A stretch of DNA of 64,000 bases, from positions 257 to 64,256 of IMG/VR virus record IMGVR_UViG_3300037762_000038; one strand, written 5' to 3'. Positions 6,401 to 48,164 of this stretch are shown here, piece after piece. The position numbers were made by a program, and so were the translations under genes. The stretch comes from a virus. Each line of letters starts with the position of its first letter. The first letter of the stretch is position 1. The notes under the pieces are model-generated. The model did no database searches. It was not told the DNA's origin and saw only the letters and a list, made by a program, of their open reading frames with translations.

Positions 6401-9400
6401 AGTTCACCATGTAGTCGAACTCGTGCTTCGGCTTCAGCTTGTAGACCGTCGGCCGACCGCCCCTGCCCATCAGGTCCGTACGGACAGTGGCCGGCGCGAG
6501 GGTACGTGTAAACCACCCGGCGTCGATACCTTGCTTGCGAGCGAGCGAACGGGTCATGTTGCCACGAGCCTTGATCGAGACCCATACCGCGGCCTGCACT
6601 TGATCGGGGGCGATACCCATTTCGTTCGCGAGGCGTTTGATCTCCGCGTCGGCCCACCAGTAATTGGCGTCGGTCAGCTTGCCTTCCTTCGATCCGAAGC
6701 CGAAGATGTGGGACATCCACATGTCGATGGTCGCGTCCTGCGACTCAGCCGGATAGGCTACTGGATCGATGCTAAGCATCAGGTTCTTGAAGAATGAGGT
6801 GATCTTCGGCGCGTTGTCCGGGTTCCCGGGCAGCGTGTACTTGTCGAGGTAATCGCGGTGGCCCGTGCCGTCGAGAATCTTGTTCCCGTACTCGGCCTGA
6901 TGGCGCGTGCCCCCCGCGTCGATCTTCTGGCCGGCTTCCCACTGCGCGTAGTGCTGGACCGCATGGCGCAGGTCTTGACCGACCGGTGTGCGCGGCGAGT
7001 ACATCGCCACGAGCGACGCGAGCTTTCCGGCTTTCGCCTTGTCGTTGCCAGCCCACGCGAGGATCGCCTGCGCCGAGCGACGGTACCAGTCCTTCGCCGC
7101 GTCACCCTCGGAGGTCAGCCCCTTCAGGAGCCGACGCATCTTCACGAGGTCCGCGGGCGTCTTGATCCATGCGGGACGACCCTTCGCCTTCGTCGCTGCA
7201 TCGCGGTTGCGGTGGAGCAGGGCTCCGGTCGGGATCGCGTCGGGCTCAATGGACTCGATGTAAGACGTGTCTACCGTACCAGAACGCATGCCTTGTAGCT
7301 CCCGGCGCGCGTAGTCGCCCTTCTCGATGGCGAAGAAGATGTCCTCGTACGACGTGAACCCAATCCCGGTGACGTAGTTGTTAATCCGCTCCAGCAGGCG
7401 GCGTAGAGCAGCGAAGACGCGCTGGACCACGCCAGTAACTTCAAGCTCGCCGCGTTTCCAGAACTCGAAGCCGTACGCGCGAGCCTCGGCTGGCACGGCG
7501 TTGATCTCGTCGGCGAGCGCGGTACCATTCTTGCGGTCGTATGCACGGGCCTTCTCCATCAGGAGCGCGTGCAGCGGTCCGCCGTTAGCGAATGCCTCGC
7601 GCACCATGCGGCGCTCAGGTCCGGTGAACACGCGCGCTTCGAGGTAGTGGTACCCTTCGTGCGCGGCCACGCTCAGGATGTCCTTGGCGTTCATTGAAAG
7701 CTCGATCACCGCGCGTGCCTTCGAGAGCCGCAACGCACCGACGCCGCCGGCTAGGTCCTCGACCAGTCGCACCTCCAGTTCCTTCGGCGTGCCGAGAATG
7801 GACTCCAAGTAACTGAACACACGCTCACCCTTGTCCTCCATCGTGCGGTTCATGCGATCCACCGCGGCGGCTCGCGACTGCGTGGGCTCCCTCAGCAACC
7901 GATCCCACAGCGAGCGCGGCAGCACGTCCACCTTCTGTGCCGCGAACGCACGCTGGGCCTGCGGCAGTCCTTCGTTCGCATCGCTGAAGTTGACCCATGC
8001 GTTCTGGCCGATGTTGTCCACGATCAGCGCCGGCAGGGCCTTCTCGCTGTACATCTGCGCGTGCATGCGGGTCGCGTTAAGCTCCCCGTTCGGCCCGAAC
8101 TCAAAGCCCGTGCGCGCGTGCGCGAACAGGTCGTGCACCGCGCGGCCCCGGAAAACCTGCTCGGGGTTACGGTACGGATGCGGGTCCCCGCCCTCGAACA
8201 CCCACAGGTGGTTATTGCCGAACACGTCCGCGCGCATCGCGGCACTGTCCTTGTAGGGCTGGCCCTCCTGTCTCCACGGCTCGATGGCGATATGCTTCGA
8301 GACCATGTTGAACATCTGCTCCTCCTCCAACGCCATCGCGTCGAACGCGTCCTTGATGGCGGGGTCGGGATTCAGGTCCTGAAGCTGGTCGTAGGCCCGA
8401 GCGATCTGCTTGCCCATCACCGGGTCCATCGGGATGTAGCTAAGCTCCTGAATCGGCGGCAGGCCATTCGCGGCGTTGTATTCCTGCGCCACATCGAACA
8501 GCGGGTGACCGAGGTTAATCGTCGTCAGCGTGCGCAGGTCGAGAATCGCGATCTGGTCCGCCTCGCGGCCGAGACGTAGAGCGGTGCGCAAGTCAGGCAC
8601 CGAGCGGGCCACATCGAGATAGGTCTGATTAGTGTCCGGGTCATACCACGTACCCATCAGGTAGGTATCGGTCGAGAGCAGGTCGTCGTTTGCGCGGATG
8701 TAGCTGGCGATGGACGCGGGATGTGGCTGCCCGAGCAGCACGACCTCACGTTGTTTAAACGTACTCACCGTGTAGCCGTTGGTCCCGGCCGCGTCGCGCC
8801 CACTGTTAAGGTACGTGGATGATCCACCAGTCGCGAGATGGCGTTGGTGAATCTCTTTCGCCCGGGCGTTGATCGTTTCGTCCGGCATCGACAGGAGCAC
8901 CCGGTCGAACAGGTTGTTCGATACATGCTTCACCGGCTGCGGCGTGAAGATGCGCAGTTGCCCGTCGCCGTACAGGATGGCATCGTAGCCGAGGTCCTTG
9001 ACCTTCTTGTCATACAGCGACCACGTGAGATGCTCGTTGCTGCCGTACTTAACAGCGATCTCGCGACGAGCCTCAGCGAGTAGCGGGTCGGCTCCGTTCG
9101 CCACGTACACCTTGTCGGCGGGAATCGCGCCCTCGTACTGCTTGCGTTCGGTCACTCCGGTCTCACGGAAGGCGGTGCCCTTGACCACGGCAGAGGTATA
9201 GGTCACACCGACGGTGCGCGCTGGCTGCCAGTCCTCGCCTCGACGCCCTCGACCCATCGCGTTCGGGTCCGTCACGCCACCGGGTACTTCACCCCAGTGG
9301 GTGAACTCGACCATCGGCACGGTGGGCTTCGCCGCGGCCTTACTGAACAGCGTCTCCTGACGCGGCAGGCCGGTCACGTCCTCACGCCCGCGCAGAGGTG

Positions 9401-20463: not shown

Positions 20464-21450
20464 TTAGTTCGTCGCTGCGACCTCGGCACGGACCATCCAT
20501 GCGTCGTTCAGGATGACGGAGGTCTGCATGGTCTTCCAGCCGGCGGTGCCGCGCTGGGCCAGCGGGTCGCCCGCGGCAGGCTTCGGGTTCACGACCATGA
20601 TCGCGAGGCTGTCCTTGCCCTTCAGCGGCACGATCCCGTACGCGTCTTTCGCGAGGTACAGCACGGGGTACACGTCCGCGTTGGTGCCGGTCGTCGAGAC
20701 CATCGTCGATGTTGCGCCACCCGCGTCGGGGAACGAGGTGAAGATCGTCGAGCGCAGGTAGCGCACGTCTTCGACCGCGCCGATCTCATTCGCCCACGGC
20801 GTCACGGTGCCGTATTGCTTGGTCGGAATGAAACCGGTGATGTTACGGATGTCGTTCTCCACGTCCGGGTGGACGAGGCCGATGAACGCCGCTTCCACGG
20901 GCTCGGTACGGAAGGCCGGAGTCGAGCCGACCACCGAAGTGATCTGCATCGCGTTCTGGCGCTTCAGGGCCCGGGTCACTTGGCGCTGAAGGTCCAGCGT
21001 CAGCGGGGTGTTCACGTCGCCACGAGCCGAGCCGTTGGCGAAGAACACGTTCGTGCCCGCCTTCAGCTTGTTGTAGCGCAGGGTCTCGACCGTTTGCGCG
21101 GCCTGCTCGCCCAGCACCTCGGTGAGTTGCTGGAGGAACGGGTCCTCGTGCGTGTCTTCGATCACGTCCGAGAACGGCACGAAGTCGCCATGCTGCTCCA
21201 GAGTGGCCGTCACGTCCGTCACGGTCACGCGGCTGCCGGCCGGCGTCACGCCTTCGACCAGCGGAGTCAGAGCGAGCGGCAGGGCGTTGTAACGACGGAA
21301 CTTGGCGACCTTGGTCGCGCGGTTCGGCATCACGTACACCTGACCGAACTTCTCGATCACGAGGTGGGGAACGCCACGCGTCAGCATCTTGGCGACGGCG
21401 TGGGCGGCGGTACGCGGCGAGATGTCGCCGTAGGTCATCGGTGCGGGCAT
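20464..21450 (-). CDS. major capsid protein (328 aa)
   Basis: Size and position: immediately after the scaffold and after portal and terminase. Composition typical of HK97-fold coat proteins. Confidence 0.7.
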   Translation of the reverse strand: MPAPMTYGDISPRTAAHAVAKMLTRGVPHLVIEKFGQVYVMPNRATKVAKFRRYNALPLALTPLVEGVTPAGSRVTVTDVTATLEQHGDFVPFSDVIEDTHEDPFLQQLTEVLGEQAAQTVETLRYNKLKAGTNVFFANGSARGDVNTPLTLDLQRQVTRALKRQNAMQITSVVGSTPAFRTEPVEAAFIGLVHPDVENDIRNITGFIPTKQYGTVTPWANEIGAVEDVRYLRSTIFTSFPDAGGATSTMVSTTGTNADVYPVLYLAKDAYGIVPLKGKDSLAIMVVNPKPAAGDPLAQRGTAGWKTMQTSVILNDAWMVRAEVAATN

Positions 21451-23029: not shown

Positions 23030-25090
23030 CTAAGCCCCTGCTCCGCGCGCGCCTGATGCACTACCCTTCGAAGCTCCTGCTCCTCCCCTCTGATCTTCTC
23101 CATGTGCGATTCCCTCCACGAGTGCGGTGAATGTATCGACGTTAGCGCCGGTTTGCGCCTTAATCGCCAGTGCGAAATCCTTGAACGCGTTGGAGATATT
23201 TGCACGAATCTCCGAACGGATCAGGTCTGCTTGTTGTTGCGCGGACATCGCTGCCGAATCCGCCTGCTCTTTCAATCGGCGAGCCACTTCGTCCTCGTCC
23301 TCCAGAATGTCCATCGGGAGGTCACGCGAGCGCATGCGTTCCAGCAACAGCTTGCGCGTGCTCACGTGCATGCGCTCCTCTGGTGTAAGCCCTGCGGCGA
23401 ATTGGTCAAGGTGCACCGAACGGACCTCTTTCGCGATCAGCGAAGTCGAGCCGCGCGCGATTACCGCGAAGTCGCCCTTGATACTCTCGTCGTCGATGAA
23501 CTGCATGTTCCAGTGGTACAGCGACGACACGAAGCTGGTCGTGAAGTGGTCGAAATTGCGCACCGTGTCGCGGATCGGCAGCGCCGCAGCACCCATCAGC
23601 ATCGACAGGTTACCCTGCGTACGCAGAGCTTCCGAGCCGCCCTGCGTCACGTCACCCAGCGCCGAAGGCGGCAACGCCGTCTCGGTATCGGCGAACGACA
23701 TGAACAGGTCGATGATCGACCGCAGTTCGGGGATGTGCGCATCCACTGAGATGCTGCGCACGGCCGGCTGAGCGGACTCTTGCCCTTGCCCCTCGCGCAA
23801 CCAAATCTTGCGCGCATAGACATCGAGCGACTGCCCGGGGATCAGCAGGTCCTGATTCAGTTCGAGCATCGGCCCGGCGACCACGCTGGCGTTGTCCAGC
23901 ATCATGCGGGACGCCTCGCCGATGGCGAGCGCGCTATCGCGCATCACCTGCGGCACACCGATGCCGAGCAGGTTGATATCGTCCTCCTCGTACACGAACA
24001 CGTGATGCGGTCGAATCTTCGCGTCGTAGGGGTTCAGCTTGGCCTTGATGATCGTGTTGTCGATTCCCCATAGGTTGGCCTCAAGCTCCTTGCCGAGGTC
24101 CGAGTCAGGGATGTTCACGCCGACGGCGCGGAGTTCATGGCCTGAGACGAATCCCCACCATTCCCACACCTCGTACTTGCGACCGGTCAAATCGTTCAGA
24201 TTCTTGCGGTCGCCCTTGTTGCGAAGCTCGATCTCCCACTCAAGCTCCTTGTAGTTGCCCATGGTATTCTCGCGCAGATACCGCTTAACCACGTCGGCCA
24301 TGAAGTCCGGGCGCTTACCAAGTTCAGAGAACTGGTTGCGTGACATGATGTGGCGGAAGAACGACCCGTCCATCTGCTTGAACACCTTAGCGCTCAGGTC
24401 GGGGTACCAGTCCCACACGCTGACGAACTCGTACAGCGGCGCGAACTTCTCGACCACGGTGGCTTTCAGCTTGCCCATCGCGTCGCGAGTCCATTTGCGG
24501 GCCTTCTTCGAGACAACCTGCGGACCGCGGAGGATGCCGGCGGAATAGAGCACGGCGCTGAAGACCACGCGGCGCGCGAGCGTGATGTACTCGATCTCGT
24601 CGAGTTGATCCTCCATCTCATGGCTCATGCGCGCGGCCTTGACCTTGGCGAAGCTCTTGATCGCCTTTTCGATCTCGTCGTCGGGAATGTCGCTGTCGGG
24701 GGCCTGCCCCTCGGGGGCGGCAGCCGCGCGCTCGGCGGTGAGTTGGTCAAGCACGAGTTGCAGGTCGCTCTCGGATAGGTCCGGCAGCGGGCTTTCTTCG
24801 ATGCCCCAGTTTTTCTCGGTCTGCGGGAACAGCATCTCCATCAGGCGCGAGACGGTCCCGATCACCTTGGTGCGAGTGATCTTCGGGTACGCCTTCGACT
24901 GGTCCAACGGGATGCGCTTCTCGATCTCGGGATCGTAGATGCCGCGGAACTGACGCAGGTTGCGCAGCCATTGCTGCTCGATCTCGCGGCGATCCTTTTT
25001 GTACTGCTCGAATTGTTTCGCTTTCGCGATCCCTAGCGTGCGCATCTTCTCCGCGTCAATCTGAGGGACTGTCGTCTGTTCGTCGGCCAT
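23030..25090 (-). CDS. portal protein (686 aa)
   Basis: Large ORF whose start overlaps the stop of the large terminase gene (ATGA). Size and position are typical of a portal. Confidence 0.75.
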   Translation of the reverse strand: MADEQTTVPQIDAEKMRTLGIAKAKQFEQYKKDRREIEQQWLRNLRQFRGIYDPEIEKRIPLDQSKAYPKITRTKVIGTVSRLMEMLFPQTEKNWGIEESPLPDLSESDLQLVLDQLTAERAAAAPEGQAPDSDIPDDEIEKAIKSFAKVKAARMSHEMEDQLDEIEYITLARRVVFSAVLYSAGILRGPQVVSKKARKWTRDAMGKLKATVVEKFAPLYEFVSVWDWYPDLSAKVFKQMDGSFFRHIMSRNQFSELGKRPDFMADVVKRYLRENTMGNYKELEWEIELRNKGDRKNLNDLTGRKYEVWEWWGFVSGHELRAVGVNIPDSDLGKELEANLWGIDNTIIKAKLNPYDAKIRPHHVFVYEEDDINLLGIGVPQVMRDSALAIGEASRMMLDNASVVAGPMLELNQDLLIPGQSLDVYARKIWLREGQGQESAQPAVRSISVDAHIPELRSIIDLFMSFADTETALPPSALGDVTQGGSEALRTQGNLSMLMGAAALPIRDTVRNFDHFTTSFVSSLYHWNMQFIDDESIKGDFAVIARGSTSLIAKEVRSVHLDQFAAGLTPEERMHVSTRKLLLERMRSRDLPMDILEDEDEVARRLKEQADSAAMSAQQQADLIRSEIRANISNAFKDFALAIKAQTGANVDTFTALVEGIAHGEDQRGGAGASKGSASGARGAGA

Positions 25091-26583
25091 TATGATCTCC
25101 TCGTGTAGATACCCGCGCGGCTGTTAAGCTGTTGCAGCCACGCTTTGCGTTCGGACTCCCGCTCGGGCTCGTTCGTACCCTTGAAATAGTACATGTCCCC
25201 GTACTGCCCGGCCTCGCAAATGTGCGAGTAGATGTTCTTGTTGACCTCAGTGCTTGTAATCCCGGCCTTACTGATCTTATAATGATACCCCCCTTTCATG
25301 CCCCGGATCAAGTACGCGCACTGCGGGCTGATCAGGTAGCCGGCCCCCATCTCCGTGCGCCGGACTAGGAAGAAATCGGTCGCGTTGGTGCGGTGGACCG
25401 GGGTGTTGGAGTAGGCGAACTTCACGGTCCTGAACCCCTCCGACTTGAAGATGTCCACGCACGATCTCTCGTCAGTCTGAGCGCCGGTATTCCCCGCCGG
25501 GTCCCCTGTGACCCGGATGTTGTACCCGCCGTACTTGTTCCGCAGCAGCGGCTTCAGGCGCTCGCGAATCGCGCGCTGGAGCCCCATCCCCTCGGTCACC
25601 ACCTCGTCCAGCGTGAGCACGCGACCGTGCATGTCCTGCTGCTTCAGCGCGAACGCAGGCGTGTGCCCGAAGTCCGCCGCAATCGTCAGGAGCAGGTGCT
25701 TGTTCGGGATCAGCCGATCCTTAGCCACATGGAAGTCAGGATCGAATAGCGGGTGCACGGGCTTGCCGGCCTTGCTCTGGCCGTAAAGGCCCATGATGTA
25801 GACTTTAACATACTCGTCCGACTTGTCCTTCGCGAGGTTACCGTAGTAACCCGGGATCAGGTTCTTGATGTTGTCCGCGTCCTTATTGGTGCGCAGGACC
25901 CAGCCGTTCTTCATCACCACCTCGGCGATCTCGCCGGGCTGACAGCGCACCATGCCTCCGGGCTGCCTGAAAATCTCCCAACCGTTTTTCTTCTGGCGAG
26001 TCGGTTCATCCGGGTCGAGACCTTCCATCATCGCCCATAGATACGAGCCCTCCTCGGGCGGGTTGGTGTCGGCCCACATGCCAAACCACGTCGGCCCCCC
26101 GTCGTCCATCTTCGGGTACTGACCGATACGACCGTCCAGACCTTCCAGAATCTCCCGAGCGGTCTCGCGCGACTCGTTAATGTAGGCACCGGTCAAATCG
26201 AGCGACAGCAGGTTCTTCACGTCGGCCGCGTCGTCCAGCGCTCGGAACATCACCTCGGCGCGCACGTCGGCGAATTCGAGGAAGAACGTCTTGCCGGTCT
26301 CCTTGTACCAGCCGGCACCGCCGCCGTCGGGGAACCAGTCGAACCACGTCTTCATCGTGGTGTCCCTCAACTGTGGCATTGTGTTACGCACGATGGCCCA
26401 GCGCGTACGCCGGTAACCTGATTTGTCGCGCTTCTGTTGCATGGCTCGCTTAACCACGTCCGTCATACAGGTAACCGATTTTCCCGAGCGGAACGGGCCG
26501 TGTAGTAGACGGAATCGCGCGTCGCTCTGCATGAATGCAGAGCACACGGGCGAGCCAGAGAGATCGAGGCGGGTGATGGTCAT
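25090..26583 (-). CDS. terL: terminase large subunit
   Basis: Walker A motif LLHGPFRSGKS near the N-terminus. C-terminal RNaseH-like nuclease motif (TIAADFGHTP). 497 aa. Followed by the portal. Confidence 0.9.
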   Translation of the reverse strand: MTITRLDLSGSPVCSAFMQSDARFRLLHGPFRSGKSVTCMTDVVKRAMQQKRDKSGYRRTRWAIVRNTMPQLRDTTMKTWFDWFPDGGGAGWYKETGKTFFLEFADVRAEVMFRALDDAADVKNLLSLDLTGAYINESRETAREILEGLDGRIGQYPKMDDGGPTWFGMWADTNPPEEGSYLWAMMEGLDPDEPTRQKKNGWEIFRQPGGMVRCQPGEIAEVVMKNGWVLRTNKDADNIKNLIPGYYGNLAKDKSDEYVKVYIMGLYGQSKAGKPVHPLFDPDFHVAKDRLIPNKHLLLTIAADFGHTPAFALKQQDMHGRVLTLDEVVTEGMGLQRAIRERLKPLLRNKYGGYNIRVTGDPAGNTGAQTDERSCVDIFKSEGFRTVKFAYSNTPVHRTNATDFFLVRRTEMGAGYLISPQCAYLIRGMKGGYHYKISKAGITSTEVNKNIYSHICEAGQYGDMYYFKGTNEPERESERKAWLQQLNSRAGIYTRRS

Positions 26584-30632: not shown

Positions 30633-31023
30633 GGACCTGTCGTTCAGCCGCTGCTGAAACAAGGCCCGGGGGTGGAAATGTCGCTGGGGAGCTACTTGCG
30701 AATCTCCTGCCGGGGCGTCGCGGGGGCGAAAATACGGATCGGGATGCGAATCCTAATTGTGTTACTGTTGAGTTGTTTACAGGGCCCAAAAATTGCCCGA
30801 ACGTACACGGGACAGGGGGACAGGCGGGGGCGGGCCGGCGCGCGTTACCCCCAAGGGGGTCCACAGCGCAACAATAAAGCATGCTTATTGCTCTGCCTGC
30901 GCGCCGGAAACCGCTGAACAATCAAACAGTTAAGCGGTGGCGTGCGGGGGATGCGTAACACAATTACGCAGGCTTAGCCCGTCGCGTTGACACTTCGCGC
31001 GGCCAAGTGGTTGATTTGTTGAT

Positions 31024-31343
31024 ACTATCCAACAGGTATCCAGAGGAAATCATTAACTGGATAGTTGCTGACGCCCGGGGACTATGCGCACTATCCATAC
31101 TATCCATCTAAAAAAAGAGAGCAGCAAGTCTTTTTGTCTTGTGAGTTTGTCACACGGTTAGGCGGTGCGCGCATTCCCTTCCGCGTTTTCGCGTGCGCGT
31201 TCAGTTACGCTCTGTATTCCGCTGGATAGTACGGATAGTTGCTCTGCGAGGTGGCAACAGTCCAACAAAACAACAGTCTAACCACTATCCACCTTAACCT
31301 GTCATACACAGATTCCCGCCGGATACCCTCTGGATAGTTGCCC
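31024..31343. repeat. iteron-like array: at least 9 copies of TGGATAGTTGC / ACTATCCA (both orientations) flanking an AT-rich tract; candidate replication origin or regulator operator field
   Basis: Forward copies at 31058, 31223, 31233, 31332. Reverse copies at 31024, 31036, 31090, 31099, 31285. AT-rich CTAAAAAAAGAGAGCAGCAAGTCTTTTTGTCTT at 31107-31140. Confidence 0.6.
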
Positions 31344-31367
31344 GGAAAACCGGCCATTCTGTACAAT
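31338..31367 (+). promoter_or_regulatory. candidate early promoter (TTGCCC-N18-TACAAT) for the first plus-strand gene, overlapping an iteron
   Basis: Sigma70-like -35/-10 pair about 35 nt upstream of the 31402 start. The -35 lies inside the TGGATAGTTGCCC repeat. Confidence 0.4.
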
Positions 31368-31401
31368 GTAGGGCTCTACAACTTCACAGGGAGACCGCCT
31401 C

Positions 31402-31650
31402 ATGTCCGCATTACCACGCCTGACCGCAGCGCGCACCGCCGCTATCAAGCGCTTGAAGCGTGCCGAAAACAGCGCGCGCCGGGCCATTGCTCGATTCAAG
31501 GTCGCCCAAGGCGAGATTGCCGCGCTCGATATCGACCTTGCAAATGCCATCCATGCCGAACGCACCGGGGCGACGCGCCAAAGGGGCATAGAGCCCGCGC
31601 CTGTGCCGACGCTGCCGGGGCGCACCGGCCCGGGCCCGGACAAGGTGTAA
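31402..31650 (+). CDS. first early gene, hypothetical (82 aa)
   Basis: GGGAGA RBS 8 nt upstream. Follows a TTGCCC-N18-TACAAT promoter. Confidence 0.5.
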   Translation: MSALPRLTAARTAAIKRLKRAENSARRAIARFKVAQGEIAALDIDLANAIHAERTGATRQRGIEPAPVPTLPGRTGPGPDKV

Positions 31651-31758
31651 CACAAATAGATTGACCGCTAACCGTGTTACGTGCTAGCGTGCGGGCGGCG
31701 CTTCGGAGTGCGGGGCGCACCGGCCCGGCGGCACCGGGTAGGACTAGGAGCTAGGACC

Positions 31759-32223
31759 ATGAGACGACAACAAGTAACCGAGATTAACGCCGAGCTTCGC
31801 GGGCCCGTGCGCGAGCAAATGCTGCGGGACATCATGTGCACGGCGTTTGAAGGCGGCTGCAACTACTGGGCCGAAGCGCGGCGCGTGCAGCGCGGGGGCG
31901 ACGGCGGGACTGAGTATCTCAGCTTCGACCTGCGCAGCGCGGAAGATCGCGTCGACAAGCGGCTAGGCGCATGGGTGCGCATCGACCCGGACGCCATCGA
32001 GCGCGGCATGCAGCGTATCGCGGACAGTCGCAAGCCGGACGCGCCGCGCTGCAAGGTTGCGCCGGGCCATCCTTCGGCCAGTCATGCGGCCTGCGGCGTA
32101 TGCGATACCATCTTCGCCGCCGTGCTAACCGCCATCGCGGACCCGGAGGGCGCGGACCTTGACGCGGGCGATGCTGACTGCATCGTACAGGCGGCAATGT
32201 GGGGCGAGATCATCTACGGGTGA
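31759..32223 (+). CDS. hypothetical early protein (154 aa)
   Basis: AGGAG RBS. ORF with several Cys residues. Confidence 0.5.
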   Translation: MRRQQVTEINAELRGPVREQMLRDIMCTAFEGGCNYWAEARRVQRGGDGGTEYLSFDLRSAEDRVDKRLGAWVRIDPDAIERGMQRIADSRKPDAPRCKVAPGHPSASHAACGVCDTIFAAVLTAIADPEGADLDAGDADCIVQAAMWGEIIYG

Positions 32224-32314
32224 TGGTCTAGCGGGTAGCGCCCGGACGTGTTAAGCTCCCGGCGCTACACGGTGGGCCATCTGGCACGCCACAACCTGAC
32301 AGAGGAACAGCACC

Positions 32315-32539
32315 ATGAACCTGCAATTTATCTTCTCGCATCTGGCCGACTTCACGCTGGCCGTTCACGCGCTCGACGAGTACGCGCTACGCCTGCGCGC
32401 CGCTGCGCGACAGCCGGAGGTGCCCGAGGAGGAGCGCGAGCTAATGATCCAGAACGCGGGCAACGCCTACCGCATCGCGCGCGAGATGGAAAGCCGGAGT
32501 TTCGCCGCTGCTGGCGAGCCGGGCCCGGAGAAGCATTAG
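32315..32539 (+). CDS. hypothetical early protein (74 aa)
   Basis: AGAGGA RBS. Preceded by a structured intergenic element. Confidence 0.5.
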   Translation: MNLQFIFSHLADFTLAVHALDEYALRLRAAARQPEVPEEERELMIQNAGNAYRIAREMESRSFAAAGEPGPEKH

Positions 32540-32613
32540 CGCTCAGCCTGTAGCGCCCGCCGTGGGCGCTATGGGGTGCGCACTACAGGCACCTAACCAG
32601 AGGAGTTAGCACC

Positions 32614-33144
32614 ATGAGCAGAGACTTCTACGAACCGAGAAACGAAGCGATGCCGCGCACCGCGCACGACATGCTGCCGGGCGACGGATTCAGCACCGCA
32701 CAGGCGCGCAAGGCGGCGCACGCGGACGCGGTAGGACACGGCAGCGTGCAGCCGTGGAGCGCGGGCCCGCTGTTCCCGTGCGTAATCGCCACGGTGGAGC
32801 GCTACGAGACTTATCAGCCGTTCGAAGCCTTCCGCCACTATCAGGACGCCTATGGCTGGAGCGACGAGGAGACCCGGCGCAACTACGAGGGCTGCCGGGA
32901 TACGTGGTACGCGCTGCGGTCGCTCGCGTCGCGGCTGCAATCCACCTCTTACCTGCTGTTCGCCTACGGGCGGCGCGAGGAGTACGCGACGCGCGAGGAT
33001 GCTGAGGCGGTGGCGCGCAGGCTGAACGCGGGCGGGGCGGACCTGCACCGCTGGCGGCAGATCGCCGCCATTGAGCGCGCCGCGCAAGGGCTCGCCGAAG
33101 CGGACGAGATTGACCAGCGCGCACGCGACGCGGGGGCCCTATGA
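32614..33144 (+). CDS. hypothetical early protein (176 aa)
   Basis: AGAGGAG RBS immediately after intergenic element copy 2. Confidence 0.55.
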   Translation: MSRDFYEPRNEAMPRTAHDMLPGDGFSTAQARKAAHADAVGHGSVQPWSAGPLFPCVIATVERYETYQPFEAFRHYQDAYGWSDEETRRNYEGCRDTWYALRSLASRLQSTSYLLFAYGRREEYATREDAEAVARRLNAGGADLHRWRQIAAIERAAQGLAEADEIDQRARDAGAL

Positions 33145-33494
33145 GCCACGGCTACGAGTCGAAGCGCTTCTCTATGACGCCAGCGCAAGGGCGCGTGCTG
33201 TATCACGCCGAGCGCATTTTTCGCTCTGCCGGCGGGCCCGGGTGCTTAGCGGCGCAGACATGGCGCGACGCGTGCGCCGAGGCCGCGCTGCCGGTAATGG
33301 TGGATACATGGACGCATGAGCAGTGCATGCGCGGCCTGCGCCTGATCGAGTGGGCGGCGCGCAAGCATCGCATGCATCTGTTCCGCGACTGCTCGACCGG
33401 CTGGCAGGACTTCGAGCGCCGCCGCGCGCTGCGGGTGCGTGAGCCGGTGCGGGGCCCGTTCATCTGGTGGGCGGCGGAAGCCGAGCTACTGTAA
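33141..33494 (+). CDS. hypothetical early protein (117 aa)
   Basis: ATGA-overlapped start with the upstream gene. Confidence 0.55.
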   Translation: MSHGYESKRFSMTPAQGRVLYHAERIFRSAGGPGCLAAQTWRDACAEAALPVMVDTWTHEQCMRGLRLIEWAARKHRMHLFRDCSTGWQDFERRRALRVREPVRGPFIWWAAEAELL

Positions 33495-33571
33495 CGCAGC
33501 CTCTAGCGCCTGCTATACTGCGGGCGCTACTGGGTGCGCAATGGTGCGGACCATAACGAGGAGCTAGAGAC

Positions 33572-33754
33572 ATGGACGAAAAGCACGAAGTGCTAAGCAT
33601 CGGCCTCAATGGCAAAGGCGACGCCGTGCTGCGCGTGCGCGTTGCACGCGGGGCGCAGATCGAGGTAAGCACGAACACGGTTAGCTTTGCGCGGCTCGCG
33701 GCTGCGGGCGTGCAGGTGGTGAATGAGTACCAGCGCCAAGGGCCGAAGGGCTAG
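33572..33754 (+). CDS. hypothetical small early protein (60 aa)
   Basis: GAGGAG RBS after intergenic element copy 3. Confidence 0.45.
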   Translation: MDEKHEVLSIGLNGKGDAVLRVRVARGAQIEVSTNTVSFARLAAAGVQVVNEYQRQGPKG

Positions 33755-33829
33755 CGCTCAGCCTGTAGCGCCTGCACTGCGGGCGCTATGGGGTGCGCGT
33801 CACAGGCACCTAACTAGAGGAGCTACACA

Positions 33830-34174
33830 ATGCAAACGCCACAGGTTAACATCGGCACGCATCGCAACGGATTGCGCGGCATTCTTGACTCGCTGGACGG
33901 TAACGGCTTCGCCACGTTCAACGCGCTGAGCGGCGCGCGCTTCACGGTGCACAATGCCGAGGTGCTGCTCGACAGCGCGACGAAGGAACAAGCGAAAGCA
34001 ACGCGCACCATGTGGGCGACGTGGCCGCAGCACGGCGGGCCGCTGTCTATCAGGGTCGAACGCAAGCGCGGGCGCTCGCCGTCCCTGATCGTGCAGCGCA
34101 TGCCGCAGTCGCTCGCGCAGCACGTCAAGGCGACGCGCAGCATCAAGGCGAGGGCGAAGGCCACCATGCTCTAG
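33830..34174 (+). CDS. hypothetical early protein (114 aa)
   Basis: AGAGGAG RBS after intergenic element copy 4. Confidence 0.5.
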   Translation: MQTPQVNIGTHRNGLRGILDSLDGNGFATFNALSGARFTVHNAEVLLDSATKEQAKATRTMWATWPQHGGPLSIRVERKRGRSPSLIVQRMPQSLAQHVKATRSIKARAKATML

Positions 34175-34248
34175 CGCTCAGCCTGTAGGGGCTCTACGGG
34201 GTCCCTATGGGGTGCGCACTGAGGCACCATTACAGAGGAGCATTTGCC

Positions 34249-34428
34249 ATGCAATCGAAACGAGCAGAGAAGCAGCGCACGCTCGCACGCCGGGCGCAGC
34301 GCGAGATAAAAGAGCAGTCCATCCTGTGGGCGGTGCGCCGCATCGGCGAGTCACAGGCGGACTACGAGGCGCGGCTACACGGGCCGCTGAGCAGCTACGC
34401 GCAGCGCCGCGCGTCGCGGGGAGGGTGA
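34249..34428 (+). CDS. hypothetical small basic protein (59 aa)
   Basis: AGAGGAG RBS after intergenic element copy 5. Start chosen at the RBS-proximal ATG. Confidence 0.4.
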   Translation: MQSKRAEKQRTLARRAQREIKEQSILWAVRRIGESQADYEARLHGPLSSYAQRRASRGG

Positions 34429-34431
34429 GCC

Positions 34432-34635
34432 ATGGGCTACGATTACGACGACATGGACGACCGCAGCGACTTTGCCGACCCGGGCGGGCGCTCGGCGTTG
34501 CGCGCATCGTCGCGGCGCAATCCGCGCAATCTACCGTGCCCGACCTGCGGCGAGCCTAACAAGCTCACGCCGAAGGACCGCGCGCTGGGTTACCAGTGCG
34601 ACGCGTGCGCGGACAGCGAGGGCTTCGGACCATGA
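34432..34635 (+). CDS. small zinc-ribbon protein (67 aa)
   Basis: CPTC...CDAC four-Cys arrangement. Confidence 0.5.
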   Translation: MGYDYDDMDDRSDFADPGGRSALRASSRRNPRNLPCPTCGEPNKLTPKDRALGYQCDACADSEGFGP

Positions 34636-35006
34636 ACAAGCGCGACATGTTGTTAGGTGGGCCCGGGCTCGACGGCTACGCTTACCGCGCGGACGTGTAC
34701 TGTATTCGGTGCGGACAAGCGACCATTGAGGCGCTGCCGCGTGAGGAGTACGGCGAGCTAGAGGCGCGCGACAGTGACACAGTGCCGCAGCCTATTTTCT
34801 TCGGCGAGGCTGACACCGCGCAGCACTGCGGCGAGTGCGGCGAGTACATGTACGGGCCCGAGGAGGAGCCGGACCCGTTCGCTTGCACGGACCCGGGCGG
34901 GCACGTGTTCCGCTGCACCGGCACGCAGTACGGCGGCGACGACTCGCGCTGGAATGGCGAGGGCCGCAGCCTCTGCGTCCATTGCGGGCACGACGGCGAC
35001 GGCTAG
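34632..35006 (+). CDS. Cys-rich zinc-finger protein (124 aa)
   Basis: ATGA overlap with the upstream gene. Two Cys4-like clusters (CIRCG..CGECG; C..C..CVHCG). Confidence 0.5.
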   Translation: MNKRDMLLGGPGLDGYAYRADVYCIRCGQATIEALPREEYGELEARDSDTVPQPIFFGEADTAQHCGECGEYMYGPEEEPDPFACTDPGGHVFRCTGTQYGGDDSRWNGEGRSLCVHCGHDGDG

Positions 35007-35074
35007 GAGGTTCTCCCTGCGCATGCTCACGCGTGCGCAGCGGGGGCGCTCTTGCCCATCACAGGAGGTTAGTT

Positions 35075-35332
35075 ATGGGATACGTTTGCATGATCGACAA
35101 GGCTATGAGCGGCTGGGGCCCGTGCCGGGGCAAGCTGAATATGTACGTGATCCAGTGCGAGACGGGCGCGCAAATGGCCCGTATCGAGCGCACGGCCAGC
35201 TTGCGACGGGAGATGGTGCAGGTGCACCGCCGCTATATGCTCCCGAAGGACACGGCGCACCGGCTCGTAACGCTGCGCCAGTTCCATCAGGTGCCCGGCT
35301 GGCATGTTGACCCGGTAGGGCGGGACGCATGA
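35075..35332 (+). CDS. hypothetical protein (85 aa)
   Basis: AGGAGG RBS 7 nt upstream. Confidence 0.45.
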   Translation: MGYVCMIDKAMSGWGPCRGKLNMYVIQCETGAQMARIERTASLRREMVQVHRRYMLPKDTAHRLVTLRQFHQVPGWHVDPVGRDA

Positions 35333-35530
35333 GCGCCTGTCCCGGCTCTTACTTCGGCGCTATCCGCGAGCACCCTGTTACGCGAGCGGGGGAGTGCCAG
35401 TCCTGCGGGCGGCGCTTCGACCGCGCGGACATGGCGGGCACGGACAAGCGCAACGTGCCGCTGCATTCGCCCCGATGGGTCAAGGAATGGACGGGCGCAT
35501 AGCGCGGACCTGAAAACCGGGCGAACCGTG

Positions 35531-35555
35531 GGGCTAGAGGTGCCACCTCTAGCCC
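35531..35555 (+). terminator. perfect hairpin GGGCTAGAGGTG-CC-CACCTCTAGCCC (terminator or RNA processing site)
   Basis: 12-bp perfect stem. No U-tract follows. Separates the early small-ORF block from the next promoter. Confidence 0.35.
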
Positions 35556-35563
35556 GTGCGGTG

Positions 35564-35593
35564 TTAAGACCCTGTTAACGACTATGGTATAAT
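35564..35593 (+). promoter_or_regulatory. sigma70-like promoter TTAAGA-N18-TATAAT
   Basis: Consensus -10 TATAAT 25 nt upstream of the 35618 start, preceded by a hairpin. Confidence 0.45.
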
Positions 35594-35617
35594 GGTCGTT
35601 TCGAGGAGGTCCAACGC

Positions 35618-35890
35618 ATGGCATTTAAACGACTGACGCGACCGCAACGCGAAGCGATGAAGGCACTCCGCGAGCTAGGCGGCGAAATGATGGTGACCCC
35701 GCAGGACGCCCGCTCCCTAGCTGTACTGAAGCGGCGCGGGCTCGTGCGATACCGGCGGGACGAGCACGGCGTGCGGCTCGTGGCGCTGCGGGAGACAACT
35801 GCACAGGCACGTGCACGCAGGCGCGAGGAGCGGCTGTACGGGAACCTCAGCCGCTGGCTGCGCCACGAGGTAGCGACTGGACGGCGTTAA
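35618..35890 (+). CDS. small basic protein, possible winged-helix DNA-binding (90 aa)
   Basis: GAGGAGG RBS. Preceded by a perfect hairpin and a TTAAGA-N18-TATAAT promoter. Confidence 0.5.
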   Translation: MAFKRLTRPQREAMKALRELGGEMMVTPQDARSLAVLKRRGLVRYRRDEHGVRLVALRETTAQARARRREERLYGNLSRWLRHEVATGRR

Positions 35891-35898
35891 CAAGGTGC

Positions 35899-35927
35899 TT
35901 GACAAGCGCCCCGAGCACGTTTAAAGT
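35899..35927 (+). promoter_or_regulatory. sigma70-like promoter GCTTGACA-N17-TAAAGT
   Basis: Member of a family of six GCTTGACA promoters. Sits upstream of the SprT-like gene. Confidence 0.45.
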
Positions 35928-35966
35928 GCCGGGGCGTTTCCATTTAAACCATAGGAGAAACTGAAT

Positions 35967-36569
35967 ATGAAAGCGAAGCACGAGACACGCGAAGAATGGC
36001 TCAACGAGGCGGTAGACCTGCTCCGGCCCATCTTCAAGGCCCGGGCCAAGGTGTCGCTGCCGAAGGATATCCGCATTAGCTGCGGCTGGACGAGCAGCGG
36101 CAAGCGCGGCCGGGCCATCGGCGAGTGCTGGTCGAAGAAATCCAGCGCCGACGGGCATATCGAGATGTTCATTTCGCCGAGGCTCGACGATCTGATCGAC
36201 GTGCTACAGGTGACCACGCACGAGTGCGTGCACGCGGGAGTCGGGCTCGAAGCGAAGCACGGGCCCATCTTCAAGGCGGCGGCGCACGCGATGGGGCTCG
36301 AAGGCAAGATGAAGGCGACGGTCGCGGGCGAGGCGTTTAAAGCAGAGGTCGCCAAGCCGGTCCTCGCTAAGCTGGGAGCGTACCCGCACGCCGCGCTGTC
36401 CGGAGGCATGTCGTCCGGTCCGAAGAAGCAGGCCACGCGGCTGATCAAGGTGTGGTGCCCGTCCTGCGAGTACACCGCCCGGATCACGCAGAAGTGGATC
36501 GATGTTGCGCTGCCGACCTGCCCGAACGAGGAGTGCGAGGCGCACGGCGACGACATGGAGGTGGGGTAG
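35967..36569 (+). CDS. SprT-like zinc metallopeptidase-domain protein with C-terminal zinc ribbon (200 aa)
   Basis: HECVH (HExxH) motif mid-protein. C-terminal CPSC...CPNEEC zinc ribbon. This architecture matches the SprT/Wss1-like zincin fold. Confidence 0.55.
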   Translation: MKAKHETREEWLNEAVDLLRPIFKARAKVSLPKDIRISCGWTSSGKRGRAIGECWSKKSSADGHIEMFISPRLDDLIDVLQVTTHECVHAGVGLEAKHGPIFKAAAHAMGLEGKMKATVAGEAFKAEVAKPVLAKLGAYPHAALSGGMSSGPKKQATRLIKVWCPSCEYTARITQKWIDVALPTCPNEECEAHGDDMEVG

Positions 36570-45501: not shown

Positions 45502-45674
45502 CAGTGGAACAGGTCAAGAAATTGCGAGAGGCCGCGAGGGAGTTCTTCAACGCCACAGTCGCACGCCCCGGGGTGGTGTTCGTGCGTAGCACTACGCGCG
45601 CGGCCCGCGACCGTGTTAACCGGGCATCGGATCGTCTCGAAAAAATTCTTCAGCAAACGGCGGAGGGCAAATGA
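45498..45674 (+). CDS. hypothetical small protein (58 aa)
   Basis: ATGA overlap with the polymerase stop. Confidence 0.35.
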   Translation: MTVEQVKKLREAAREFFNATVARPGVVFVRSTTRAARDRVNRASDRLEKILQQTAEGK

Positions 45675-45997
45675 CCGACCAGAAAGCACCGGAGCAGGAC
45701 AACCAACCGAAGGTGAACCGCGAGGAGCAGAACCGGGTAATCATACCGATGATGCACCGACTGCTGCCACCCATCGTGCAGGCGGCGGCGCTGTACCATC
45801 AACTCTACCCGCTCGACAAGACCGCGCCGGAAGTAGTGGATGCGGTCACGGTGGCAGTGCCCTTGCGGCACTTCATGTTGATGACCAGCCTCGTGACGAA
45901 CCTCTGCGTCATGGAGATGGAGCGCCGGCAAGCGGCGAACGACGCCAAGGTCAGCGACACGTTCCCGCAAGACCACATTCCCGAGGGGGCAGCATGA
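45671..45997 (+). CDS. hypothetical protein (108 aa) ending in …DHIPEGAA
   Basis: ORF. Its C-terminus and the downstream junction are repeated at 50262-50295. Confidence 0.5.
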   Translation: MTDQKAPEQDNQPKVNREEQNRVIIPMMHRLLPPIVQAAALYHQLYPLDKTAPEVVDAVTVAVPLRHFMLMTSLVTNLCVMEMERRQAANDAKVSDTFPQDHIPEGAA

Positions 45998-46449
45998 AGA
46001 CCGTCTACCTAGCAGGGCCCATCACGGGGCTGGACTACGAGGGAGCCACGGACTGGCGCTACGCCGCTACGCGTCTGCTCGCGCCGGAGATCAAGGCTCT
46101 CTCGCCGATGCGCGGCAAGGAATACCTGTCGCACGTCAAAGAGTTCACGATGGACGGCGACAGGTACAGTCCGTTCAGTGTGATGTCCTCGAACCGGGGC
46201 ATTATGACCCGCGACCGCTGGGACGCTACTCGCTGCGACGTGCTCCTCGTTAACCTTCTCGGCGCGAAGCGCGTCTCCATCGGCACCGTCATGGAGATCG
46301 CGTGGGCCGACGCAGTGCGTACGCCCATCGTGTGCATCATGGAGCCCGAGGGCAACCCGCACGAGCACGGCATGATACTGGAAGCCATCGGCTTTCGTGT
46401 ACCCGGCCTCGAAGAAGCTCTGCACATCATCAAGGCGATGCTGCTATGA
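45994..46449 (+). CDS. nucleoside 2-deoxyribosyltransferase / dNMP N-hydrolase (Rcl/DNPH1)-like protein, paralog 1 (151 aa)
   Basis: N-terminal MKTVYLAGPITG matches the YLAGPF signature of the NDT fold. A conserved Glu follows later. Confidence 0.65.
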   Translation: MKTVYLAGPITGLDYEGATDWRYAATRLLAPEIKALSPMRGKEYLSHVKEFTMDGDRYSPFSVMSSNRGIMTRDRWDATRCDVLLVNLLGAKRVSIGTVMEIAWADAVRTPIVCIMEPEGNPHEHGMILEAIGFRVPGLEEALHIIKAMLL

Positions 46450-46911: not shown

Positions 46912-47172
46912 ATGCCCTACATCAAACAGATCGACAGAGACGCGCTGGGGTGCGGCACACGCCATCCCAGCACCGCCGGGGAGTTGAATTACACCTTCAC
47001 CCTGTTCGCGCTGGAGTACATTCAGCGCAAGGGGTTGAGCTACCAGCACATCAACGACGTGCTCGGCGCGCTCGATGGTGCGAAGCTGGAGTTCTATCGC
47101 CGGCTCGCTGCGCCCTACGAGGACAAGAAGATCGCCGAGAACGGCGACGTGTACGATCAGGAGGTCGCATGA
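46912..47172 (+). CDS. hypothetical protein (86 aa)
   Basis: GGAGGA RBS. Confidence 0.5.
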   Translation: MPYIKQIDRDALGCGTRHPSTAGELNYTFTLFALEYIQRKGLSYQHINDVLGALDGAKLEFYRRLAAPYEDKKIAENGDVYDQEVA

Positions 47173-48164
47173 AGCTGATCGGATTGGCGGGCCCCGCCGG
47201 AGTGGGCAAGGACACCATCGCGGACTACCTCGTCGCGACGCATAACTTCACGAAGTTCTCGTTCAGCGACGCGCTGTACGACGAGGTGGCAGCGGCGTTC
47301 GGCATCGACAAAGCCGTGCTCTATGTGCGCGAGACGAAAGAGCACCCGATGGAAGCGTTGCAATACTGGTACTGCAACGACCTCGCTTTTCAAGACATCA
47401 TGTTCGAACAACTGGCGCGCGTCCACAAGTACCCGCTGGACGTGTGGTGTTCGCCGCGTCAGGTGCTCCAGTGGTGGGGCACCGAGTACCGCCGCAAGCA
47501 GAACCCGGGGTATTGGATTTTTAAGGCTGGGCTCGTCGTGCGCGCCTACCTCGCGCTCGCGAAGGATGACCCCGAGACCCAGCGCGGCGGGCTGGTCAAC
47601 TGCTCCGTACGCTTCCCGAACGAGCGCGTCTTCGTCGAGATGCACAACGGCGAGGTGTGGCATGTGCAGCGCCCGAACTGGGGTGACGCTCTGCCGGCGT
47701 CGCAACGGGCCCATGTCGCCGAGCAGGGACTACCGGTGTTGCCGCGCGACAAGGTGGTGCTCAACAACGGCACCATCGAACAGCTTGGCACCGCTGCCAA
47801 CCTGCTCCTCAGCAGCCAGCCGGGTAGCATGATCAAGTGCGCCCCAGTCGGTCCCGAGCAGGTAACCTGTACGGGGTGCGGCTGGGTCCACATGGCCTAC
47901 ACGCGCGCCGAAGCGCAGCGCGAGGTGGACGACTTCAACGCATGGTTCGTCCAACAGACCGACGAGACGAAGGCCAGCTATGGCGGCAAGCAGTCACGCG
48001 TCGAGGATTACGAGGGCTGCGACCGCTGTGGCCGCAAGGTGTTCCGCCCGAGCAAGCCTGATGACGCGCCAATCGGTTGCACCATCGGGCCGGTGATCTA
48101 CGACCCAGCGGCCGAGGAGGCCGACCGCCGCTTCGGGCAACCGCATTACGGGCACGACGCATGA
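47169..48164 (+). CDS. deoxynucleoside monophosphate kinase (T4 gp1-like) with C-terminal Cys-rich zinc region (331 aa)
   Basis: N-terminus MKLIGLAGPAGVGKDTIADYL closely matches the T4 dNMP kinase P-loop (MKLIFLSGVKRSGKDTTADFI). C-terminus has CTGCG...CDRCG. Confidence 0.8.
   Translation: MKLIGLAGPAGVGKDTIADYLVATHNFTKFSFSDALYDEVAAAFGIDKAVLYVRETKEHPMEALQYWYCNDLAFQDIMFEQLARVHKYPLDVWCSPRQVLQWWGTEYRRKQNPGYWIFKAGLVVRAYLALAKDDPETQRGGLVNCSVRFPNERVFVEMHNGEVWHVQRPNWGDALPASQRAHVAEQGLPVLPRDKVVLNNGTIEQLGTAANLLLSSQPGSMIKCAPVGPEQVTCTGCGWVHMAYTRAEAQREVDDFNAWFVQQTDETKASYGGKQSRVEDYEGCDRCGRKVFRPSKPDDAPIGCTIGPVIYDPAAEEADRRFGQPHYGHDA

Follow-up and report, generated by a model that had tools for sequence, protein, structure and literature searches.

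Structured RNA elements between the small early genes of a tailed phage belong to a widespread phage RNA family absent from Rfam

The DNA investigated here is a stretch of 64,000 nucleotides (nt) from a virus (IMG/VR record IMGVR_UViG_3300037762_000038, positions 257 to 64,256), referred to below as the window, and derives from a tailed phage of high GC content (~62%). Late genes occupy the minus strand at 1-30500, and early and replication genes follow on the plus strand from ~31400. At the start of the plus-strand operon, downstream of a non-coding region of ~900 nt, small open reading frames (ORFs) are separated by five related intergenic elements (c1 to c5), each of which spans from the stop codon of the upstream ORF to the Shine-Dalgarno sequence (SD) and ATG of the next (Table 1). 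An earlier note on this DNA had described them as near-identical structured copies, one at each junction between the first early ORFs, ending in the ribosome-binding site and start codon of the following gene. All five elements could be located, and all ended at the SD and start codon of the next ORF; c3 and c1, which had been left out of model building, were recovered by the covariance model R2 described below. Near identity held for c2, c4 and c5, while c3 was ~64% identical to c2, and c1 was more diverged. The 17-mer TAGCGCTCAGCCTGTAG occurred three times, against 0.18 occurrences expected. Not every early junction carries an element: the ORFs 32614-33144 and 33141-33494 overlap without one, and no member of the family is present in the gap after the first ORF (31651-31758). 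A degenerate sixth copy (c6), outside the range of the earlier note, probably belongs to the family as well; its hairpin reads CCUGCGCAUGC-UCAC-GCGUGCGCAGCGGGGG and is followed by the SD AGGAGG.

Table 1. Positions of the elements and of other features in the window. Bit scores and E-values refer to the covariance model R2; E-values derive from a shortened calibration and are rough.
Feature	Positions	Strand	Parts and basis	Model match and fold
c1, most diverged copy	32221..32317	+	UGA stop 32221-32223; long irregular hairpin 32224-32279; ATG 32315; stop codon to stem base 8 nt	17.2 bits, E 0.003 (filters off); -35.2 kcal/mol, z -3.4
c2	32537..32616	+	UAG stop 32537-32539; long hairpin 32537-32585; alternative hairpin P2 (GGUGC..GCACC) 32575-32593; ATG 32614	69.7 bits
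c3	33492..33574	+	UAA stop 33492-33494; long hairpin 33495-33538; different downstream hairpin 33533-33552; ATG 33572	32 bits, E 9e-8
c4	33752..33832	+	UAG stop 33752-33754; long hairpin 33754-33800; P2 33792-33810; ATG 33830	67.4 bits; z -4.0
c5	34172..34251	+	UAG stop 34172-34174; long hairpin 34172-34221; P2 34211-34228; ATG 34249	61.8 bits
c6, degenerate sixth copy	35001..35077	+	UAG stop 35004-35006; hairpin 35001-35056; ATG 35075	15.2 bits, E 0.013 (filters off); -37.6 kcal/mol, z -4.7
Small early ORFs separated by elements (part 1)	31402-31650, 31759-32223, 32315-32539, 32614-33144, 33141-33494	+	ORF list	
Small early ORFs separated by elements (part 2)	33572-33754, 33830-34174, 34249-34428, 34432-34635, 34632-35006	+	ORF list	
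Best sigma-70-like promoter candidate of the early operon	31338..31367	+	TTGCCC-18-TACAAT; 9/12 consensus matches, consensus scan only	
2639-amino-acid virion-module protein	3456-11375	-		
Major capsid protein	20464-21450	-		
Portal	23030-25090	-		
Large terminase	25090-26583	-		
Dense cluster of 17 tRNA genes at window end	61289-63950	+		

Single-sequence folding predicted one irregular helix of ~21-27 base pairs (bp) for the elements. The lower stem (8-10 bp) contains the upstream stop codon, which in c2 pairs with CUA, and its 5' flank pairs with GUGCGC...; above it lies a purine-purine mismatch, mostly G.G, followed by the conserved middle stem CCUGUAG/CUAUGGG with a tandem U.G/G.U, on which the inner stem is stacked. 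The apical stem is variable and covarying, and the loop (3-8 nt) is kept in neither sequence nor length. The upper helix comprises 11-14 bp, and the irregularities, 1x1 or 2x2, are found at a fixed place. Predicted stabilities ranged from -20 to -41 kcal/mol, and z-scores on single-sequence folding were -2.4 to -4.0, with -4.7 for c6. Some copies depart from this scheme: the middle stem of c1 reads CGGGUAG/CUACACG, a variant type also observed in a close relative (L013:9888-9956), and in c3 the tandem G.U is replaced by a 2x2 mismatch (CU/CU). In c5 the apical stem is wholly swapped by compensatory changes (GGGGCUC/GGGGUCCC), and the paired change GUAGGGGCUC / GGGGUCCCUAU to which the earlier note had drawn attention is real.

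Strand B, the 3' strand of the lower stem (GGUGC...), has a second complement in segment C (GCACC), 4-9 nt downstream, with which it may form an alternative hairpin, P2. The hairpins nested within an outer stem CCTGTAG...CTACAGG that had been proposed earlier were not recovered. Folding gave a single long irregular hairpin in which the partner of CCUGUAG is the adjacent CUAUGGG. Only c2 has the outer stem in perfect form; c4 has part of it (CCTGT/ACAGG), and c5, c3 and c1 lack it, as do the relatives read by eye, whose P2 loops leave no room for it.

Covariation was evaluated in two alignments. In alignment A2 (13 elements) 90.4% of the cells were paired and 8 pairs showed two-sided changes; none of 500 shuffles reached the observed score, and slid registers did not exceed 51%. 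Alignment A3 (43 distinct rows) was 89.6% paired, with two-sided changes in 15 of 20 pairs, a covariation score of 0.440 as compared with 0.165 for shuffles (0/500 reached it) and slid registers of at most 48%; since A3 was fitted to the model and its sequences are related, these numbers lean towards structure. Two-sided changes in the apical, middle and lower stems were, however, plain in the raw sequences. In the 40 sense rows G.U/U.G combinations outnumbered A.C/C.A combinations 133 to 18, or 64 to 18 without the two tandem-G.U columns, indicating that the fold lies on the sense strand, which argues for RNA and against a hairpin in template-strand DNA. The view of the earlier note that selection acts on RNA structure rather than on DNA sequence is strongly supported by the aligned copies. 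The elements are best explained as copies of a structured RNA module that acts in cis and is carried by the sense strand of the polycistronic early mRNA.

The motif could be observed in dozens of viral contigs with GC contents of 42-63%. Most copies were collected with the exact pattern CCTGTAG-N12-26-CTATGGGGTGCGC, which fixes 20 bases. A scan of IMG/VR with this pattern gave 18 loci, ranging from 42% to 63% GC, each with a perfectly complementary inner stem of different sequence. In a scan of 185,579 genomes a single contig of 62,955 bp was found, in a Burkholderiaceae metagenome-assembled genome, and this contig is phage-like in size and local gene content. A scan of metagenomes added 11 further real copies and one chance match (L033), which has no stem and was rejected. 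Because the exact pattern fixes 20 bases, a protein-anchored sample, unbiased in design, was also collected, in which loci encoding a GP88-like protein (downstream of one element) were fetched and searched with R2; this corrects the bias in part. Variants in this sample included CCUAUAG/CUAUGUGG, CCUAUUG/CAAUGGGG, CCUGAUG/CAUUGGGG and, on the 3' side, UUAUAGGGUUUGC; further copies in the fetched loci, e.g. CCUGGUG/CACUGGGG and CCUGCACAG/CUGUGUGGGG, kept the pairing in all cases. Outside its own build, R2 recovered c3 and, with filters off, c1, as well as three extra copies in L007 (four within 3.8 kb) and second copies in L011, L013 and L023.

Searches of Rfam 15 at the gathering threshold returned tRNAs only, and at E<=10 over 32100-34400 two chance-level matches were obtained, with no family match for the element. 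The elements are hence copies of a structured RNA family that is widespread in phages and absent from Rfam 15. By capsid protein, the nearest isolates are Pseudomonas phage Rollin (47%) and Pseudoalteromonas phage Y3 (46%), followed by Stenotrophomonas StenR_269 (40%) and Xanthomonas DES1 (37%); R2 found no element in Rollin (whole), StenR_269 (1-50000) or DES1 (1-36000). Megablast of 31000-36000 against 50,697 phage records gave zero matches, and no phage record is close in DNA. A tRNA-like origin was considered for the window copies, which contain a D-arm-like GCGC-UCAGCCUGUA-GCGC, and was rejected, as no tRNA model matched and the feature is absent in relatives.

A number of relatives, the L001-type copies (L001, L002, L003, L005, L009, L016, L024, L031 and similar ones), have in addition a small hairpin whose loop resembles UUCG and behind which a run of U residues follows (GCCCUUCGGGGUCUUUUU). 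This hairpin lies 20-40 nt 3' of the element, after P2 and before the SD; it is missing from the window copies and could be a weak terminator or attenuator. That the elements themselves are attenuators of transcription, or terminators without a U-tract, which grade early gene dosage is very improbable. Both this extra hairpin with its U-run and the serial arrangement of very stable hairpins in one operon would suit such a function; however, neither the helix nor P2 is followed by a U-tract in the window, in the KP34-type copies described below or in low-GC relatives, the distal genes would fall silent behind five or six efficient terminators, and the overlap with the stop codon means that ribosomes would unwind the base of the helix. 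The remark in the earlier note that the elements, lacking U-tracts, are not classical terminators was borne out, as no U-tract follows any copy. An intrinsic terminator, defined as a GC-rich hairpin with a U-tract behind it, was also rejected directly, no U-tract being present and a scan of the plus strand at 32200-34300 yielding no terminator-like site. On the plus strand between the ORFs from 31402 to 35006, neither a sigma-70-like promoter nor a terminator-like site was detected.

A BLAST search with an L001-type element yielded a chance-level match in Klebsiella phage JKT5 (Drulisvirus, Autographiviridae), which proved to be real. Two early intergenic hairpins of JKT5 matched R2 (E 0.0013 and 0.0095), a model built without any Drulisvirus sequence, and both start at stop codons and carry the shared core. 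The JKT5 element is kept in 235 Drulisvirus-like phage records, with two copies each, and the BLAST matches run from the stop codon to just past the next ATG. When window, metagenomic and Drulisvirus copies were combined (alignment A4), the shared core A(G/C)CCU(G/A)UAG-apex-CUAUG(G/U)G with 16 invariant columns was obtained. The copy c4 reads AGCCTGTAGCGCC..GGGCGCTATGGGG, matching the KP34-type consensus AGCCTATAGCGTCCTACGGGGCGCTATGTGAA; the two Drulisvirus copies per genome covary (GCAUCC/GGGUGC versus GCGUCC/GGGCGC), and metagenomic L041-type copies bridge the sequence types of the window and of KP34. Judged by these sequence comparisons, the window elements belong to the same family as the early-region motif of KP34-like phages. 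In both groups the elements are intergenic, sense-strand features of the early region that occur in more than one copy and stretch from the stop codon upstream to a point ahead of the next SD. The KP34-type copies differ in several respects: their internal loop is a 2x2 one of purines (AG/AA), where the other copies have G.G plus A-U, their lower stem has another sequence, P2 is lacking, and there are two copies per genome, as compared with five to six in the window.

In the literature searched, neither the RNA structure of the KP34-like motif nor its wider distribution was described, and a literature search with a window-type 13-mer returned nothing. The published reading of the motif, promoter or nick site, differs from the one favoured below. 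Eriksson et al. (2015) took AGCCTATAGCGTCCTACGGGGCGCTATGTGAA for a putative phage promoter that could not be the only one, with nick sites as an alternative (PMC4411677), and in NC_028870.1 (L067) the motif is annotated at 1459-1490 and 2235-2266 as 'promoter, discovered using MEME'. Lu et al. (2019), however, obtained no transcript from the motif region with purified KP34 RNA polymerase, the true promoter of which is T(A/G)ATGTTACAGGAGTA (PMC6834552). As this polymerase does not use the motif in vitro, the promoter annotations are probably wrong.

A promoter for a phage-encoded or virion RNA polymerase, including a hairpin promoter in the style of phage N4, or a single-strand nick site is, for the window elements, extremely improbable. 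Besides the annotation and the proposal just cited, it could draw on the giant virion proteins of relatives called putative virion RNA polymerases, such as the StenR_269 protein at the homologous position, which was so named on size and composition alone (PMC10747016). The 2639-amino-acid protein of the window showed no match to PDB sequences and was rejected as a virion RNA polymerase; its sole Pfam match is DUF7178, and its C-terminal ~700 amino acids resemble giant phage proteins, the matches including a PHROG labelled DarB-like. No single-subunit RNA polymerase domain was found in the 11 large window ORFs tested; the genome may extend beyond the window, where an RNA polymerase gene might lie. 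The N4 hairpin promoter is used by the virion RNA polymerase and consists of template-strand DNA with a stem of 5-7 bp and a 3-nt loop; in contrast, the excess of G.U puts the present hairpin on the sense strand, and its stems of 11-14 bp and loops of 3-8 nt do not agree with the N4 type, which was therefore rejected.

Three further candidates were tried and rejected. The Frpo/ssi single-stranded DNA promoter is a hairpin rebuilding -35, -10 and UP elements (PMC11541004); no TTGACA- or TATAAT-like boxes were present in the stem. A sigma-54 promoter (GG-N10-GC) would fit the L001-type copies only, and its fixed spacing is ruled out by the variable length of the P2 loop. Integron attC sites are defined by R''/R' boxes (RYYYAAC ... 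GTTRRRY) at the hairpin foot; on inspection by eye, only L001-type copies carry AAC..GTT, which those of the window and of the L004 and KP34 types lack. No gene for an integrase was noted around the elements, but no search aimed at one was made.

The genes that accompany the elements vary. Those downstream are diverse: an ArdC-like gene has the ArdC N-terminal domain at a score exceeding the Pfam cut-off, others gave a weak sub-threshold ArdA-like match, a GP88 match or a sub-threshold match to DUF7249, and one encodes a helix-turn-helix-like sequence, as read by eye. No protein common to the element-bearing loci was found, and among the other loci of this kind only L013, a close relative, has homologues of the window proteins, indicating that the RNA motif is more conserved than its neighbours. 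Identical elements could be observed with the same upstream gene and unrelated downstream genes (L001 versus L006; 0.95 and 0.04) and with unrelated upstream genes and the same downstream gene (L006 versus L014; 0.04 and 1.0). When L013 (IMGVR_UViG_3300037722_000442) was compared with the window at 31630-33820, identity was 97.8% from the start of c1 (32228) to 33029 and 86-87% outside this block. L013 carries unrelated DNA in place of the ORF 31759-32223. The difference between L013 and the window is a recent cassette exchange bounded by the element, and the swapped flanking genes together with the block starting at c1 indicate that the element sits at mosaic junctions.

These junctions, and an element better conserved than any neighbouring protein, would be expected of a DNA-level linker or selfish repeat kept only by recombination that shuffles cassettes, with no function as RNA. 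A comparable case is that of the promoter-early stem-loop (PeSL) cassettes of T4-type phages, which, as Arbiol et al. are said to have described in 2010, are repeated units flanking small, poorly conserved early ORFs. Both are intergenic stem-loop units coinciding with points of modular gene exchange; PeSL units differ in including an early promoter, whereas the elements have no promoter-like site and show RNA-type covariation. A linker and nothing else is nevertheless very unlikely: recombination needs identity, not a hairpin, the compensatory pairs (15 of 20) and the G.U:A.C ratio of 133:18 show selection for pairing on the sense strand, and neither constant orientation nor a fixed gene register is required for recombination. 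Recombination between copies is an evolutionary pattern and cannot be the sole reason for a covarying, strand-specific hairpin.

A likeness to the RNase III processing hairpins between the early genes of T7 had been suggested in the earlier note, and this suggestion gained support. The T7 early regions were folded at what we take to be the coordinates of the RNase III sites R0.3, R0.5, R1, R1.1 and R1.3, for which Dunn and Studier (1983) is reportedly the source. Folding revealed a family of intercistronic hairpins of ~55-60 nt in which an internal loop separates the lower stem from an upper stem of ~10 bp. The upper stem has a G.U pair, its base (AAGGUC/GGCCUU) is conserved and its apex varies, and the plan is that of the elements. 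The motif also takes up the corresponding intercistronic places in the early region of Klebsiella phages of the T7 supergroup (Drulisvirus). In both systems several hairpins without a U-tract lie between early genes of a transcript made by the host RNA polymerase, and each is an irregular helix of about two turns (>=20 bp), the 21-27 bp of the elements being predicted with covariation. The T7 sites differ in their asymmetric 4/5 internal loop, where the element family has 1x1 or 2x2 mismatches, in that their cleavage is proven and that of the elements would be a prediction, and in that the element family spans unrelated phage lineages. The predicted lower stems of R0.5 and R1 (1431-1498 and 3098-3173) begin with the UGA that ends gene 0.4 and gene 0.7, respectively, and in R0.5 the stop codon is separated from the upper stem by 7 nt, as in the element family. 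We know of no earlier remark on this abutment.

We suggest, at a probability of roughly 45%, that the elements are a module for RNase III-type processing and mRNA stability, with a second role in linking gene cassettes for recombination. In this view the host double-strand-specific endonuclease RNase III would act on the long helix, as it does on R0.3-R1.3 of T7, and would cut it on the 3' strand beside the mismatch. The P1 hairpin would then stay on the upstream mRNA and guard its 3' end, while the freed strand B (GGUGC...) could re-pair with the downstream segment C (GCACC) to form P2. A 5'-terminal stem-loop protects mRNA against RNase E; P2, by base-pairing the new 5'-monophosphate end, would shield the downstream mRNA in this manner. 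Each early cassette would become an autonomous, insulated message, and as a by-product the repeated copies would offer a place of homologous recombination for cassette swaps. Such a module would account for the length of the helix, its fixed irregularities, the unconserved loop, the position, the copy number, the parallel with T7 and P2.

The alternative hairpin fits this proposal in several respects. Of 33 distinct copies, 29 are predicted to form P2 (B:C). The paired sequences are of at least nine types, complementary in each case (GGUGC/GCACC, GUUUGCA/UGCAAAC, GUUUGUA/UACAAGC, GGUGAA/UUCACC, GUAGG/CCUAC, GAUGC/GCAUC and others), with a hand-combined estimate across types of p ~0.004. P2 starts where a cut beside the mismatch would make the 5' end. 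The proposed role in stability may be likened to that of the repetitive extragenic palindromic (REP) elements of Escherichia coli, which, as Liang, Rudd and Deutscher reportedly found in 2015, lie within 15 nt of the stop codon. Both are stable extragenic hairpins that abut a stop codon and are met by the terminating ribosome, both carry GTAG (at the 5' foot in REP elements), and both may serve as mRNA 3' stabilisers, a function predicted here for the elements. REP elements differ in occurring in both orientations, on host chromosomes and with processing by RAYT transposases; the element motif has a single orientation, and its GUAG is paired inside the stem.

Several observations weigh against RNase III-type processing. 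R2, run with filters off on T7 400-7000, gave no match at any R site, its best match (11.8 bits) lying inside gene 0.4 with its start just within the end of gene 0.3, which makes the resemblance architectural and not homologous. Published work finds no usable consensus for RNase III, the Escherichia coli sites not fitting the proximal/middle/distal box consensus (PMC5371410), so that cleavage cannot be deduced from sequence. A literature search yielded no report of cleavage or of RNA ends for any family member. P2 is singly weak (median shuffle fraction 0.12) and is missing in KP34-type copies and in three of the four L007 copies. In phages of 42-63% GC, the primary sequence (CCUG...UGGGGU) is more conserved than a shape-reading nuclease requires, which hints at a sequence-specific partner; in the present sample, conservation of the 20 pattern bases is in part a matter of ascertainment, as most copies were found by the fixed pattern. 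A simple nuclease model does not require a tight stop-codon register either. As RNase III-type processing leaves the sequence conservation and the stop register unexplained, two alternatives stay alive.

The first is a switch driven by the ribosome, in which a ribosome terminating on the upstream gene covers strand A and lets B re-pair with C, leading to translational coupling or re-initiation. The two hairpins would bring the stop codon near the next SD, or would alter the fate of the mRNA, and downstream expression would depend on upstream translation. The gap between the end of the upstream stop codon and the foot of the upper hairpin is 7-8 nt in 25 of 41 copies and 4-12 nt in 36 of 41; four of the remaining five look like mis-called stops, e.g. 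the internal GUAG of c2. In c1 to c6 the distances, read from the sequence, are 8, 7, 5, 7, 7 and 9 nt (counted to C15 in c2). As the stop codon itself is paired in the lower stem, a terminating ribosome would open exactly strand A, with the upper hairpin at the mRNA entrance. Strand B moreover has two alternative partners, both of which covary. The long helix and the P1+P2 state cannot form together, and they differ little in energy (-2.0 kcal/mol on average, with the long helix preferred in 27 of 40). Masking of strand A, however, left the predicted accessibility of the SD unchanged (0.53 versus 0.53); simple coupling by SD unmasking is thus not supported, and coupling through SD sequestration was rejected. 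The absence of P2 from KP34-type and most L007 copies also disagrees with a switch, and the register could reflect genome compaction against the 5' edge of the helix, the same abutment being present in R0.5 and R1 of T7. On balance, a ribosome-driven switch appears unlikely.

In the second alternative, a sequence-specific protein or RNA polymerase would bind the element, comparable to nut/N or to put of phage HK022, and elongation or translation in the early operon would be modified. The conserved helix bases (CCUG/UGGGGU) lie beside purine-purine mismatches and the tandem G.U, an arrangement typical of helices recognised by proteins. The early proteins encoded at 31402-31650 and 34249-34428 are small, with an arginine-rich N-terminus, e.g. 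MQSKRAEKQRTLARRAQREIKEQ, which recalls the arginine-rich motif RRAEKQAQ of lambda N; a family search gave no match for either, and both are possible RNA-binding candidates. The P1+P2 state, two adjacent stem-loops of ~60 nt, resembles the put RNA, a cis-acting sequence of about 60-70 nt in the early transcript that forms two adjacent irregular stem-loops (PMC9378689). The put sites differ in number (two per phage) and in their position just downstream of early promoters; no sequence similarity between them and the elements was found, nor was there an Rfam match. Five or six copies per operon also contrast with the one or two nut or put sites, the scan predicted no terminators to be read through, and, as no protein is common to the window and the other element-bearing loci, a protein partner would have to be a host factor. 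We consider such a binding site quite unlikely. Overall, the observation made in the earlier note was confirmed in part, and its interpretation is supported in part.

With regard to the setting of the elements, the promoter candidate of the early operon sits 35 nt upstream of the first plus-strand ORF (31402). Eight of the nine window copies of the heptamer GGATAGT cluster at 31024-31338 in both orientations; the chance expectation for the whole window is 3.1, and 0/100 shuffles reached nine copies. In three of them the heptamer is part of the longer GGATAGTTGC, and the last copy abuts the predicted early promoter. The cluster probably serves a phage regulator or origin, as an operator array or as iterons. 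Among the early ORFs, PHROGs returned a family match only for the ORF at 31681-32223, with function unknown. Beside the family-A DNA polymerase, the gene at 45613-46449 gave a sub-threshold match resembling nucleoside 2-deoxyribosyltransferase and that at 46950-48164 an above-threshold match to deoxynucleotide monophosphate kinase, and these two genes may hint at modified or salvaged nucleotides.

The family adds to the known structured RNAs one with strong covariation, absent from Rfam 15 and spread over phages that differ widely in GC content. A function that can be tested is proposed for a motif of more than 200 sequenced Klebsiella phages, including candidates for phage therapy, in which it is annotated as a promoter against experiment and for which cultured hosts and rnc mutants are available. 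A compact, self-contained intercistronic insulator would also be a useful part for synthetic biology. The element marks the borders of exchangeable early cassettes, some of which encode anti-restriction-like proteins, and may thus guide the search for early anti-defence genes in metagenomic phages. The same 60-nt joint occurs in Klebsiella T7-like podoviruses, in uncultivated freshwater phages and in the high-GC phage of the window. In a bolder picture, which we hold to be unlikely, it would be a portable two-state 'cassette joint', in which the terminating ribosome toggles between the long helix and the two-hairpin form and so sets whether the message is cut, stabilised or re-initiated, combined with an integron-like exchange without integrase. 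If this were true, early and anti-defence genes (ArdC-like, ArdA-like, GP88) would be swapped across phage lineages together with ready-made expression signals.

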